From Candidatus Jordarchaeales archaeon (lineage in GTDB: Archaea; Asgardarchaeota; Jordiarchaeia; Jordiarchaeales; Freyrarchaeaceae), in the NCBI GenBank assembly GCA_038858525.1, contig JAWCFL010000022.1, forward strand, positions 16,585-31,073: a DNA stretch of 14,489 nucleotides, given 5' to 3'. The notes under the pieces are model-generated. The model was not told the DNA's origin and made no database searches. It saw nothing but the letters and a program-made list of their open reading frames with translations. Made by a program: the position numbers and the translations under genes. Shown here one piece after another: positions 2,580 to 7,106 of this stretch. Numbering within the stretch: position 1 is the stretch's first letter; each line of letters opens with the position of its first letter.

Positions 2580-3308
2580 ATGAGTAGGCGCCGTTACCGT
2601 CGCCAAGGTGGCGGCTCAGCGGCTATAGCATGCGCGTCCATACTGTTCTTCATCATATCCGCATTTGTGTTTCAATCAATGATCGCCAATTTAAGTGATT
2701 ACTCACTGCTCGCATATCAAAGGGTTTATACTGTATACTGCTCACTTTCTAACGCGACACGCGACCCCACAGAGAGCTTATCTGATTTTTCCGCCTTCTT
2801 CAATGGGGTTAGAGCGCTGGCGAGCTACGTTAACGGAGCTCAGCTCTCCGCACCATACTTAATACTGGACTTCTTTGGAAGCACGCTTTTCCCTAGGCTC
2901 ATGGCGTGCCTTCTCCTCCTCTCAGCAGCCATAGTGCTCATGACATTAGCTTTAAGAAACCCATACATGGCGCTGGCAGCAGTAACAGTCGCTCTCGTAG
3001 CAATATACTTCGCCTACTCGATCTGGAATATCGCATCAATACTTTCGCTGGAAACCCGAATAGTGCAACTCATATGTTTTAACGTTGACTCCCAACTCAC
3101 AAAGCTCTACGGGCCTGACTGGAGCTTCTTCCTCAGAAATATTCACGGGATATCTTTGTCCCCAAGGGATCTCTTTAATCCCAGCGTGTTCAGCATGTTT
3201 TATTTAAGCTTCGCTGAGTCGTACCGTGCATGGATACTGGAGATTGGCGCAGCGTGCATGGCAGCATCAGCCCTAATAGCTCTAGCAGCGGCAAAAGCAG
3301 CAAGGTAA
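2580..3308 (+). CDS. Hypothetical multi-pass membrane protein (242 aa)
   Basis: RBS GGTGGTGG. Arg-rich N-terminus followed by about 4 hydrophobic helices. No family recognised. Confidence 0.8.
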   Translation: MSRRRYRRQGGGSAAIACASILFFIISAFVFQSMIANLSDYSLLAYQRVYTVYCSLSNATRDPTESLSDFSAFFNGVRALASYVNGAQLSAPYLILDFFGSTLFPRLMACLLLLSAAIVLMTLALRNPYMALAAVTVALVAIYFAYSIWNIASILSLETRIVQLICFNVDSQLTKLYGPDWSFFLRNIHGISLSPRDLFNPSVFSMFYLSFAESYRAWILEIGAACMAASALIALAAAKAAR

Positions 3309-4139
3309 CCCGCTACCTTTCATTTATTAAGTGATTTGCACTTTCACACTTTCCCGATTCTTCAGAATCCCTTTATGTTGCTTTCATCTTCATAGTGAAG
3401 ATAGATGTTTGATTTCTGGCTTTCAAGTCGATAATGTCGAAGAACAATTTAAAAGAGCACCGGAACAGTTGTCGGAGAATTGCAAGTAGCCTAAACGCTT
3501 GCACTTATACGAGAACGTTCGGGGAAGACATCCTAAGCTTTTTTCATCAGACAATAGAGGCTCTTCTCGAAAGCTTATAAATGACTCCTATGAACCCCCA
3601 AGAACACATTAAGCCTGTTGGTGTTCCACAACACTCCGGGACGACAAGTGCTCCGATAATTGTTTGCTTCACAAGCAACAACTTAGAAGTCTCTCGAGGC
3701 GAGAAACCTCCTCACAGCAATCAAAAAGAGGGGCTTGTGGAGAACGCGACGTAAAGTGTCTTCTTCGCCGGAATAGACATTCATGAGAAAAGAGGATCAG
3801 CATCCGTGACCCCCGCTGGCCAAGCAACTGACCAACAAGCAGCGGGTCCTAATTAGTTTCCTAAGCTGACCAGAACATTTAGAACACTAATAGTGAAGAT
3901 TATATACGAGAAAATGTTTGAACCCGAGGGTGGTTGGCTTAAAAAGAGGAAAAGAGTATACTTGCTCAGCAAGCCCCTCATCGGGAAGAGGCGGGAGCAG
4001 ACAGGGAGCCTCATTGGTTCGGATGAGAACAACCTGAAGTTCCGGCTGACTTAGCTGAAAGCGTAAGAAGTGCCTTCTTTTTCACGTTAGCGTAGGGTTG
4101 GAGAGGGAAAAAGAAAAGTATACCTAAAATAAGGGAAGC

Positions 4140-4154
4140 GAAAAAGGTTATAGA
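4140..4154 (+). promoter_or_regulatory. Putative BRE + TATA for the SIS-HAD operon
   Basis: GAAAAAGG followed by TTATAGA, about 75 nt above TTG 4230. Confidence 0.35.
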
Positions 4155-4229
4155 GCTTAAAGACGTAGTATAATGGGGCCTTGAGGTCCTCCATAGATAC
4201 TTCTACTTCACCGTGATGGAGCTGTCAGC

Positions 4230-5276
4230 TTGCCCGGTCGCCAAGCATACCTGATACTGAAGGAGATACTGGAGGAAGAGGAGGCTGTTAAATTAACGTT
4301 GGAGGTTGCCTCCAGGTGCCTGGAGGAGGTGGCGCCTTGTCTGCATTCTGCCAACTTCACGTATTTTACTGGGAGCGGAACAAGTTACCATGCGTCCATT
4401 GTTGGTCAGTATGCCTTGAGCCGGCTTGCTTCCTCTTTCTCATCCTCTGTGCCTGCATCCGAGTTCAGCCAGTGGGCATCCGTTAAGGGCCCTGAAACTC
4501 TTGTCGTAGCTATCTCCCGGTCAGGTGAAACATCGGATACGCTGGAGGCAGCGGAATACGCGAGGAGTCATGGTGCTAAGGTGTTGGCGCTCACAAACAC
4601 TCCTGGAAGCAGTCTTGCAAGTGTCTCGCACTTTATCCTTTTAACGGGGGCTGGAGAGGAGAGGTCTGGCGTGGCAACGAAAACATACGTCTCCCAGCTT
4701 GTGGCATTGTGCCTTTTTTCGGCTTTCATAGGCGAAATTAAAGGACGTGGCGAGGCTGTGAGACTTAAATCCATCCTCAACGAGCTACCTGGGAAGGTGG
4801 GGGAAACGGTTAGGTTGTCGGGGGAGCAGGCTAGGCGGCTTGCCGAGGAACACTCTGAAGCCGAGTTCTTCTTCGTTCTCGGTTCAGGGCCAAACTACGC
4901 CACGGCGCTTGAAGCAGCCCTCAAGCTTAAAGAAGTTGCAGGGGTATTCGCGGAGGGCTTCTCCACCAGGGAATTCCTCCATGGGCCAATGCATCTGGTC
5001 GACGAGAAAACCACAGTAATAATACTTCTTCCTCCTCAAGAGCAAGCTGACACATGTGTAGACTTGGCTAGCCGTCTCGAAAAGCTCGGCTCTCGCGTGA
5101 TCACGGTAGCTGACAGGGAGGTTGGCTCCGAAAACCAGCTACTTGCCCCTATTAACAACCCAATTCTCTCTCCCATCTTCTTCATAATACCCTTACAGCT
5201 CCTCTCGTGTTACCTCTCATTGGCGAGAGAGGGAAAGGGAGAGTTGCGGAGCGAGGTGGAGACGAGTGGTTATTAA
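4230..5276 (+). CDS. Double-SIS-domain sugar-phosphate protein, GlmS isomerase-domain-like, with no glutaminase domain and no GlmS C-tail
   Basis: Motifs GSGTSYHA, ISRSGETSDT, ALTNTPGSSLA, ATKTY, GSGPNYATALEAALKLKE and EFLHGP. TTG start preceded by GGAG. Confidence 0.9.
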   Translation: MPGRQAYLILKEILEEEEAVKLTLEVASRCLEEVAPCLHSANFTYFTGSGTSYHASIVGQYALSRLASSFSSSVPASEFSQWASVKGPETLVVAISRSGETSDTLEAAEYARSHGAKVLALTNTPGSSLASVSHFILLTGAGEERSGVATKTYVSQLVALCLFSAFIGEIKGRGEAVRLKSILNELPGKVGETVRLSGEQARRLAEEHSEAEFFFVLGSGPNYATALEAALKLKEVAGVFAEGFSTREFLHGPMHLVDEKTTVIILLPPQEQADTCVDLASRLEKLGSRVITVADREVGSENQLLAPINNPILSPIFFIIPLQLLSCYLSLAREGKGELRSEVETSGY

Positions 5277-5958
5277 GTGTATTTTGTTCGGCATAGATGA
5301 CACCCTCTACGACGCATCCCTCCAGAAATATCTTGCAAGAATGAACGCTGTAAGGGCGATGATAGAAGCTGGACTGCCAGTAGACCCCGAAACCGCGTTT
5401 AACACGTTGAAAGCGATCGTGGCGGAGTACGGGGAAGATTACGACAGGCATTTCGACAGGATGCTTGAACGCCTCGGACTAAGGGTTAGCCCGAGGATCA
5501 TAGCTGCGGCAGTTGCAGCGTATCACGACACAAAGTTCGCATACCTGCGGCCGCATCCGGAAACAGTTCCAACACTGCTAAAACTTAGAGATCATGGCTA
5601 CAAGATAGGCGTTGCCTCAGCAGGAAACCCCGTCAAGCAATGGGAAAAGCTCATACGCCTAGGGTTACAACACTTGTTCCACCACGTGGTCATAGCTAAG
5701 GAAGTCGGGTACGAAACGCTCGAATGGCATGTATTCGAGAAAGCCCTTAAAGCGCTAAATTCGACACCAAAGGAATCCTTATTCGTAGGATGCTCACTTT
5801 CAGAGGAGCTGGTGCACGCGAAGGCGGCAGGACTATTAACTGTCAGAGTGAAACGTGGATCACACCGGTCAGAAACACCAAAAACTCCAGGGGAAACTCC
5901 AGACTACGAGATCTCAAACTTAACAGAAATATTCAAGATAATAGAAGAAATGAAATAG
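5266..5958 (+). CDS. HAD-superfamily hydrolase homolog (TIGR02253 / MJ1437-like), predicted catalytically inactive
   Basis: Family-typical segments DDTLY, ARMNAVRAMIEAGLP, AYHDTKFAYLRP and KQWEKLIRLGL are present. Motif I reads FGIDDT and motif IV reads VGCSLSEE. GTG start with RBS GAGGTGG (5253-5259) and an 11-nt overlap with the SIS gene. Confidence 0.9.
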   Translation: MVIKCILFGIDDTLYDASLQKYLARMNAVRAMIEAGLPVDPETAFNTLKAIVAEYGEDYDRHFDRMLERLGLRVSPRIIAAAVAAYHDTKFAYLRPHPETVPTLLKLRDHGYKIGVASAGNPVKQWEKLIRLGLQHLFHHVVIAKEVGYETLEWHVFEKALKALNSTPKESLFVGCSLSEELVHAKAAGLLTVRVKRGSHRSETPKTPGETPDYEISNLTEIFKIIEEMK

Positions 5959-6137
5959 AAAAGTGAAGTGGAGAAAGAGGGTGGCAGATTAAGTAGGCTG
6001 CTTCTTTTCTAACTTTGACGGCGTTTTCCAGTTCACTGCTCTGTCATCTATTCAATGTTGGGCTGCTCTCTCTTTCTGTCGGCAAAATTTTATATTCTCT
6101 CCCCGCGCCATCCACATTAACTTTCCTCGGGGTAGGT

Positions 6138-7106
6138 ATGTTCATGCGTACGAGTGGTGTTCTTCTGGTGACGATGTGTGCCGCGCTCTATGCCCTCACA
6201 ACAGCCATGTCGAAGCTGTTCTTTAGCGTTTACGAGTTCAGCATCTTAACTTACTCTTTCATAGCGGCCGCGCCCGGGGTGACTATTCTACCCTTTAAAG
6301 TAGCTGATGGAAGCATAAAGCGAATCAAGCCTTTCATTAAGTGGGCGCTGGCTCCCGCGTTCCTTTTCGGCTCAGCTCGCATCCTCTTCTACTACGCCGT
6401 CAATTACGGCTCCCCATCTCTTCCCGCCGTCGTGAACTCGTTCTCTCCTATAATGGTGGCTGTTCTCAGCTTTTTCGTGTTCGCCGAAAGACTGAATAGG
6501 CACCAGATAGCAGGCATGGTCGTCGCTATACTTGGAATGCTTATCTTCCATGCCTCAAACTTCCAGACGAACACGGGAAACCTGCTGGCTGAAGCCGCCG
6601 CCGTCCTTTCCATGCTTGGCTTTTCAGTCAATAACGTGGCCACAAAGAAGGCGCTGGAAAACGTTGACGAAGCAACACTCACAACTCTGATATTCACTAT
6701 CAGTAGCGCAGTCCTGGCTCCCGTGGCGATATCCGAGCTTGCAGCAAAAATTTCCTTCCCCTTCATGGGGAGAGCCCCCCTCACCCCGATAATCCTAGCC
6801 GGAATATTCCTCTTCGCCTTCCTAACCGTTATTCTCCCAACGTATCTCCTCATAGATGGCCTTAACTACGTCTCCCCAACGACAGCCGGCCTCCTCCTTC
6901 TAAGTCAGCCAATCTTCACAATGATCTTTGCATCAGCCCTAAGAGTAGAGTACGTGGCTCCACTACAAGTCATAGGAGCCATCATAACGATACTCGGAAT
7001 AGCCATCTTCCGAATAAAAGCTCCGGAAAAGGAGGAACCCTCCCTAAAGGAGCTACGAAAGGAAAAGGAAAAACCTTCACCAAAGAACTCCAGCAAACAA
7101 CAATAA
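6138..7106 (+). CDS. EamA/DMT family transporter (about 10 TM segments)
   Basis: Duplicated EamA halves with signatures SPIMVAVLSFFVFAERL...QIAG and VSPTTAGLLLLSQPIFTMIFA...QVIGAIITILG. Start moved from TTG 6015 to ATG 6138 (after GGGGTAGGT); ATG 6144 is also possible. Confidence 0.9.
   Translation: MFMRTSGVLLVTMCAALYALTTAMSKLFFSVYEFSILTYSFIAAAPGVTILPFKVADGSIKRIKPFIKWALAPAFLFGSARILFYYAVNYGSPSLPAVVNSFSPIMVAVLSFFVFAERLNRHQIAGMVVAILGMLIFHASNFQTNTGNLLAEAAAVLSMLGFSVNNVATKKALENVDEATLTTLIFTISSAVLAPVAISELAAKISFPFMGRAPLTPIILAGIFLFAFLTVILPTYLLIDGLNYVSPTTAGLLLLSQPIFTMIFASALRVEYVAPLQVIGAIITILGIAIFRIKAPEKEEPSLKELRKEKEKPSPKNSSKQQ

Follow-up and report, generated by a model that had tools for sequence, protein, structure and literature searches.

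Pseudoenzymes are well documented in eukaryotic signaling but poorly charted in archaea. In HAD enzymology the Asp nucleophile, a Lys and two Mg ligands are regarded as essential. The trehalose-6-phosphate phosphatase (TPP)-like HAD domains of yeast Tps3 and Tsl1 and of plant class I trehalose-6-phosphate synthase (TPS) are inactive and have lost active-site motif residues, while persisting as regulatory or non-catalytic parts of a sugar-phosphate-metabolizing complex (PMC1769515). For the C-terminal HAD domain of sucrose-phosphate synthase, which resembles sucrose-phosphate phosphatase (SPP), a role in protein-protein contact and channeling has been proposed, and not one in catalysis (PMC4493782); this domain co-exists with an active SPP, which it is thought to recruit. 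Here we describe a HAD-fold open reading frame (ORF) with degenerate catalytic motifs, a candidate pseudo-phosphatase, from a Candidatus Jordarchaeales archaeon of the Asgardarchaeota. The ORF (5266-5958, plus strand, 230 aa, GTG start) lies in a stretch of 14,489 nucleotides (assembly GCA_038858525.1, contig JAWCFL010000022.1, positions 16,585 to 31,073), hereafter called the window, to which all coordinates refer unless another locus is named. It is directly preceded by a double-SIS gene resembling the isomerase domain of GlmS (4230-5276, plus strand, 348 aa), which overlaps its start by 11 nt. On balance, we regard the product as a HAD-fold protein devoid of catalysis that probably serves (amino)sugar-phosphate metabolism together with the SIS enzyme. 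The nearest database and genome matches identify its host as a hot-spring archaeon of the Jordarchaeia, for which the label Freyarchaeota is also in use. The Tps3, Tsl1 and plant TPS domains are fused parts of large eukaryotic TPP-family proteins with a glycosyltransferase partner, whereas the window protein is a stand-alone archaeal protein of the HAD-IA type with a SIS partner. The SPP-like domain of sucrose-phosphate synthase is likewise fused, is of plant or cyanobacterial origin and differs from the window pair in partner chemistry. In a literature search, no description of a SIS protein paired with a degenerate HAD protein was found, nothing relevant was returned on TIGR02253, PH1655, MJ1437 or HAD-superfamily pseudoenzymes, and the pseudophosphatase literature that was found dealt with eukaryotic protein phosphatases only.

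In order to assign the ORF to a family, its translation was compared with curated profiles and solved structures. The protein matches the Pfam HAD families PF00702 and PF13419, and its score of 183.8 bits against the NCBIfam hidden Markov model (HMM) TIGR02253, over profile positions 2-220 of 221, exceeds the curated cut-off of 169.75 bits. The closest solved structure by sequence is that of PH1655 from Pyrococcus horikoshii (PDB 2hoq, E 1.8e-55). PH1655 and MJ1437 are reportedly glyceraldehyde-3-phosphate phosphatases in vitro, according to a substrate screen. With PH1655 and TIGR02253 (CTE7) the window protein shares, besides the HMM score above the cut-off, the Rossmann-like core with its cap and the cap residues; what sets it apart is the absence of the Asp nucleophile, of the Lys in motif III and of the two motif IV Asp residues. 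Its motif I is F8-G9-I-D11-D12-T13, with G9 (codon GGC, 5290-5292) opposite the Asp nucleophile of PH1655 and with the D+2 acid D11 and T13 retained. The hydroxyl of motif II is kept, S118 (5617-5619) being aligned with a Thr in PH1655. In motif III, G-Y-E-T151-L152-E, the residues E-T-L stand opposite K-K-P of PH1655, so that codons 151-152 (5716-5721) encode Thr-Leu at the Lys-Pro position, where the canonical relatives described below have Lys in 96% and Pro in 88% of the rows. Motif IV reads V-G-C176-S-L-S-E-E181; codons 176-181 (5791-5808) thus encode C-S-L-S-E-E in place of the Mg-binding D-x-x-x-x-D, with C176 opposite the Asp of the GD pair and E181 opposite the second Asp, positions at which 96% and 100% of the canonical rows carry Asp. 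A preliminary description of the window, made from the letters alone, had claimed these three motif losses along with the retention of S118 and D11, and both the translation and the PH1655 alignment agree with it. Its view of the cap as typical of the family also holds, since R25, Y86, H87, T89, K90, E127 and R131 are kept in the subclade of the window, and so does its statement that the frame and ribosome-binding site are intact: the frame is open, and a purine-rich Shine-Dalgarno-like GAGGTGGAG (5253-5261, plus strand) lies 4 nt before the GTG, within the 3' end of the SIS gene. This element is conserved in the two closest orthologs (loci L004 and L010), and orthologs have ATG at the start position where the window has GTG.

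The substitutions recur in DNA of other studies. Contigs of three further studies (X6, X11 and X13), none of them flagged as a potential origin of the window, span the ORF with codons 9, 151, 176 and 181 unchanged, which excludes assembly or sequencing error. An AlphaFold2 model built from an alignment of 18 sequences reached a mean predicted local distance difference test (pLDDT) of 96 and a predicted template modeling score (pTM) of 0.89. A Foldseek search placed this model on 2hoq with a template modeling (TM) score of 0.91, a root-mean-square deviation of 2.0 Å and 43% identity, revealing a HAD-IA core with a helical cap; the next structural matches were NANP/HDHD4 and other HAD-IA proteins. 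L004 and L010 share 85-86% amino-acid identity with the window protein (synonymous divergence, dS, 0.74-1.14) and, like it, carry Gly at the nucleophile position. The ratio of nonsynonymous to synonymous divergence (dN/dS, Nei-Gojobori) between the window gene and these orthologs is 0.098 for L004 and 0.065 for L010, and a Njordarchaeia-type ortholog pair gave 0.063. For the neighboring genes the comparison of the window with L004 gave 0.15 (SIS), 0.20 (EamA), 0.054 (epimerase), 0.099 (hexapeptide transferase) and 0.108 (methyltransferase), so that purifying selection on the HAD-like gene matches in strength that on its ordinary neighbors. Homology to an enzyme family is thus combined with the absence of essential residues and with purifying selection after their loss. 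The preliminary description had preferred selection for a non-catalytic role over decay or a sequencing error, and had named a dN/dS near the neutral value of 1 and intact motifs in close orthologs as observations that would speak otherwise. The range of 0.065-0.098 is far from neutral, the close orthologs share the substitutions, and together with the fold and the contigs of the three studies these results support that preference. The product is very probably devoid of HAD-type phosphatase activity, judging from its sequence.

Homologs were collected from 80 genome loci and from metagenome loci, their four motifs were tabulated, and a maximum-likelihood tree was calculated from 84 rows, comprising 60 degenerate and 24 canonical-group rows. 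A single branch, with a Shimodaira-Hasegawa-like approximate likelihood ratio test (SH-aLRT) value of 98, parts the two groups. In the canonical class, found in Altiarchaeota, Methanopyri, Methanobacteriota and some Bathyarchaeia paralogs, the motifs are DxDDT, S/T, E-K-P and GDxxxxD; 22 of the 24 rows are fully canonical, and L084 and L088 each deviate at one scored motif position. The degenerate class lacks the Lys-Pro of motif III, where it has E, T or other residues and L, and the first Asp of motif IV, the Lys and the Asp being absent from all 60 rows. It comprises proteins of Jordarchaeia, Njord/Atabeyarchaeia, many Bathyarchaeia and one Korarchaeia-like metagenome-assembled genome. The losses are hence not private to the window gene, a point that extends the preliminary description, and define a clade spanning two phyla. 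In all Jordarchaeia relatives the nucleophile is replaced by G or S, and motif IV contains VGC. The Asp nucleophile is still present in ~60% of the degenerate rows, often as F-D-I-E-D-T-L, and within the clade G, S, A or N took its place, by the minimal count, five times, at least three of these replacements being forced by well-supported branches. Because of this partial retention and the repeated replacement inside the clade, the losses appear to have occurred in two steps: on the tree, the Lys of motif III disappeared together with the Mg ligand at the base of the clade, and the nucleophile later and repeatedly. This order is the pattern expected when catalysis has become dispensable while the protein is still needed, and the HAD-like gene was indeed retained after the nucleophile losses. 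Mean column entropy is similar in the degenerate (1.33) and canonical (1.21) groups. D12, D16, Q20, R25, K124 and W126 are invariant across the degenerate clade, and S118 is nearly so. The Asgard subclade to which the window belongs keeps the canonical cap residues H87, K90, E127 and R131 as well as the shared R25, Y86 and T89; in the Bathyarchaeia subclade four canonical cap-domain residues are changed.

Two further observations concern motif IV. Cys at the position of its first Asp (codon 176, 5791-5793, in the window) occurs in two separate subclades, the Jordarchaeia and one Bathyarchaeia group (L037, L038, L039 and L051), which may reflect convergence; both subclades also lack the Asp nucleophile. 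Three proteins of another Asgard family (L113-L115, family f27; ~40% identical) retain K-P and the Asp nucleophile, with GN in place of GD in motif IV. They have no SIS gene upstream, stand outside the SIS-linked clade and are intermediate in motif state; one in-frame TAG is present in L114.

The degenerate clade is tied to the upstream SIS gene. A SIS gene immediately precedes the HAD gene, in the same orientation, at 59 of the 60 degenerate loci, the window included; the sole remaining locus begins 97 nt from a contig end. The distance from the SIS stop to the HAD start is between -11 and +8 nt in 56 of the 59 loci, most commonly 1 or 2 nt. None of the 22 canonical loci has an upstream SIS gene; canonical TIGR02253 members lie mostly beside a gene for a pyridoxal phosphate (PLP)-dependent enzyme. 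The same held for a second, separate sample of 201 Asgard genomes, in which canonical homologs (~35% identical, family f9) lacked the upstream SIS gene and degenerate homologs (families f1, f13 and f15) had it, family f15 being a further degenerate member (L112) with 42% identity. Pairwise distances of the HAD-like and SIS proteins are correlated (r = 0.94, exceeded by none of 999 permutations), and the HAD-like protein has diverged less (mean p-distance 0.43, vs 0.50 for the SIS protein).

The window SIS protein covers residues 251-590 of GlmS in an alignment scoring 231 bits and matches the isomerase domain of E. coli GlmS (1moq) with E 4.6e-40. Equivalents of GlmS K485, E488 and H504 are retained, and in its alignment and these Lys/Glu/His equivalents the protein resembles the GlmS isomerase domain as well as the stand-alone double-SIS enzymes NagB-II, GlmD and FrlB. 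Unlike GlmS it has no glutaminase domain, and it scored below every equivalog cut-off tested. No description of NagB-II, GlmD, FrlB or GlmS with a HAD-like partner was found in the literature. A GlmS-type tail, G-L-N-P-D-K-P-x-K-L-x-K-V-V, which holds the Lys603 equivalent, ends 54 of 57 SIS partners, and the SIS partner is probably an active enzyme in most lineages, as far as its residues indicate. A general loss of activity in the SIS family was considered and rejected on the same count, the loss of the tail being confined to the genus of the window. Within this genus the SIS gene shows a dN/dS of 0.135-0.15, corresponding to purifying selection.

The wider neighborhood of the pair differs between subclades, with recurrent sugar and amino-sugar genes. 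In Njord/Atabeyarchaeia a PfkB sugar kinase gene follows the pair, and genes for a PIG-L deacetylase and GalT are close by. One Bathyarchaeia group has a gene for a BadF/BcrA-type kinase upstream, a Pfam family to which N-acetylglucosamine kinases belong as well, and another has a DegT-type aminotransferase gene in the upstream position. The occurrence of two unrelated kinase families beside the pair accords with a phosphorylated sugar or amino sugar as the substrate of the SIS enzyme, and by analogy the setting would fit systems of the glucosamine-6-phosphate deaminase or ketosamine-6-phosphate deglycase kind. In two Bathyarchaeia operons (L008:2782-6711 and L027:3-3690) a canonical TIGR02253 HAD gene, a DegT-type aminotransferase gene, the double-SIS gene and the degenerate HAD gene follow one another in this order, so that intact-motif and degenerate TIGR02253 copies are found within one gene cluster; in L008 the operon is preceded by an ABC sugar transporter. 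The presence of a canonical paralog in the same operon suggests that the dead copy is a duplicate of the phosphatase of the pathway. The genome of the window encodes a separate full-length GlmS (715 bits). The preliminary description had asked whether it also encodes an intact paralog of the HAD-like protein: no canonical TIGR02253 paralog was found in this genome, which encodes no fewer than six further HAD proteins, five of them with intact motifs.

Taken together, these observations are most readily explained if the degenerate clade arose from canonical TIGR02253 phosphatases and was then inherited, with the GlmS-isomerase-type double-SIS gene, as a tightly coupled two-gene unit. The HAD-like protein would most likely be a non-catalytic subunit or accessory of a SIS (amino)sugar-phosphate enzyme of the isomerase or deaminase type, in which the preserved cleft between cap and core would bind a ligand, or the surface would bind the SIS protein, without hydrolysis. 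We place the non-catalytic role with the SIS enzyme because the clade is tied to the directly upstream GlmS-like gene, and the two proteins probably function together. Physical binding of the two is a real possibility, though one that we hold with less than even confidence; a predicted 1:1 complex of the SIS and HAD-like proteins, from alignments of 21 rows each, scored 0.00 against a mark of 0.32, a value that counts neither for nor against binding. A bolder version, which we consider unlikely in its entirety, is that, in Bathyarchaeia and several Asgard lineages, the SIS protein and the dead HAD protein are obligate subunits of one heteromeric enzyme, the HAD protein standing where GlmS has its glutaminase domain and there closing the active site, delivering a ligand or sensing one. 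Such a pair would be a previously undescribed two-subunit (amino)sugar-phosphate enzyme or a regulatory switch, and in the genus of the window, since both partners have lost catalytic elements there, it may have turned into a purely regulatory or sensing module.

Several observations weigh against a non-catalytic partner of the SIS enzyme. The Asp nucleophile in ~60% of the clade and Ser118 in many members imply that some of these proteins might keep residual or altered chemistry. The motif loss and the linkage to the SIS gene fall on one branch and thus count as a single evolutionary event, not as 59 independent ones; the weight of the linkage lies in the pair having stayed adjacent across two phyla while the remaining neighborhood changed. 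The largest Bathyarchaeia group has housekeeping neighbors (tRNA methyltransferase and TATA-binding protein) that give no hint of a pathway. No fused SIS-HAD protein was seen among the longer homologs or among the best 150 matches of a profile search covering 1.84 billion representatives. Finally, the SIS proteins of the window, L010 and L004 are the only ones without the tail that contains the catalytic Lys603 equivalent. In these three loci the 3' end of the SIS gene (5215-5276 in the window) now serves the HAD gene as its purine-rich leader; in L004 the stop of the SIS frame comes 14 codons sooner. Owing to this loss of the catalytic C-terminal tail, the activity of the SIS partner in the genus of the window is uncertain.

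Among the alternatives, the one that survives best is a stand-alone ligand binder or carrier of the same pathway, for example a metabolite buffer or sensor, that is co-transcribed with the SIS gene without being bound to its product. The operon linkage and the conservation of the cap residues fit such a protein as well as they fit a complex, and the failure to find a SIS-HAD fusion is in keeping with it. We nevertheless consider it unlikely, as the spacing of 1-2 nt or overlap, kept across two phyla amid a turnover of all other neighbors, points rather to proteins produced at a fixed ratio, and as the loss of the phosphate-binding Lys and the Mg ligands would weaken the binding of a phospho-ligand in the old mode.

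A neofunctionalized enzyme, performing Mg-independent chemistry beside the SIS reaction by means of D11/D12, D16, R25, K124 or the motif IV Cys, was also considered. The very high conservation, above that of the SIS enzyme, and the six residues invariant in the clade are compatible with a new activity, as is the appearance of the motif IV Cys in two separate subclades that both lack the nucleophile. The HAD fold is moreover known to support other chemistries, e.g., in dehalogenases, and engineered PH0459 variants were among the structural matches of the model. Most of the invariant residues, however, are common to the canonical relatives and do not amount to a new catalytic constellation. No position of the former active site is conserved throughout the clade: the nucleophile site is D, G, S, A or N, motif III holds many different residues, and the motif IV site is S, N, C, A, V or H, which fits relaxed constraint and not a new site. 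This alternative is accordingly a rather improbable one.

That the window protein is still a phosphatase working with non-canonical residues, for instance with D11 as the nucleophile, is very improbable: D11, D12, T13 and S118 are retained, but the nucleophile, the Lys and two Mg ligands are missing together, and D11 is replaced by E, N or G in other members of the clade. A decaying pseudogene or an artefact of sequencing or assembly, as might be suspected from the disappearance of several catalytic residues, can be dismissed in view of the open frame, the dN/dS of ~0.07-0.10, the occurrence of the substitutions in several genera, the contigs of the three studies and the confident model.

A non-catalytic partner of the SIS enzyme would provide a clean and phylogenetically deep archaeal case of a pseudoenzyme, in which the catalytic residues were lost stepwise in a stand-alone HAD-fold protein. 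In Asgard archaea and Bathyarchaeia this pseudo-HAD would have outlasted its catalysis and still exceeds its companion enzyme gene in conservation. The results correct the automatic annotation of the clade proteins as 'TIGR02253 family HAD-type hydrolase', define a two-gene module of SIS and pseudo-HAD, and may indicate an unrecognized mode of regulation or assembly of amino-sugar-phosphate enzymes in uncultured archaea.

Some observations were made on the canonical relatives. At 17 of the 22 canonical loci the next gene upstream, which is on the opposite strand, encodes a PLP-dependent enzyme (~424 aa, PF00291); the canonical loci listed for this pair are L053, L055, L061-L067, L071, L075 and L079-L088. 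This conserved divergent pair may be a clue to what the canonical phosphatases act on. Among the best 150 profile matches, the only long proteins (P0226, P0262 and P0268; 559-576 aa) are fusions in which a TIGR02253-like HAD domain, its Asp nucleophile and GD intact, sits on the N-terminal side of CofD (2-phospho-L-lactate transferase). The fusion to CofD suggests that some TIGR02253-like relatives act in F420 biosynthesis.

In the DNA runs X6 and X11, a 43-nt segment of the window (5344-5386) is, with 4 mismatches, the sole match of a high-depth contig (40-56x, as compared with ~5x for the organism of the window). A more abundant organism of the same springs thus seems to carry a homolog in which this stretch, encoding a conserved cap helix, is near-identical. 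In the metatranscriptome library X14, contigs of low depth that are 95-99% alike and belong to a related strain cover 4181-4678 and 5648-6071; as these are possibly derived from DNA, they give a weak hint of transcription. A scan of the window for bacterial-type promoters and terminators performed no better than on shuffled sequences, and no Rfam RNA family was found within the window. Downstream of the HAD-like ORF lies a gene for an EamA/drug/metabolite transporter (DMT) family protein (6015-7106, plus strand), which is conserved as a neighbor only within Jordarchaeia and is therefore context outside the core pair. Upstream of the SIS gene, the ~920 bp of 3309-4229 are free of Rfam matches and of ORFs reaching 60 aa. 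In L004 the corresponding interval (2686-4307) carries genes for a serine resolvase and a TnpB-like protein (Cas12f1-like_TNB), and the region in the window may be the empty site or a remnant of such a mobile element.

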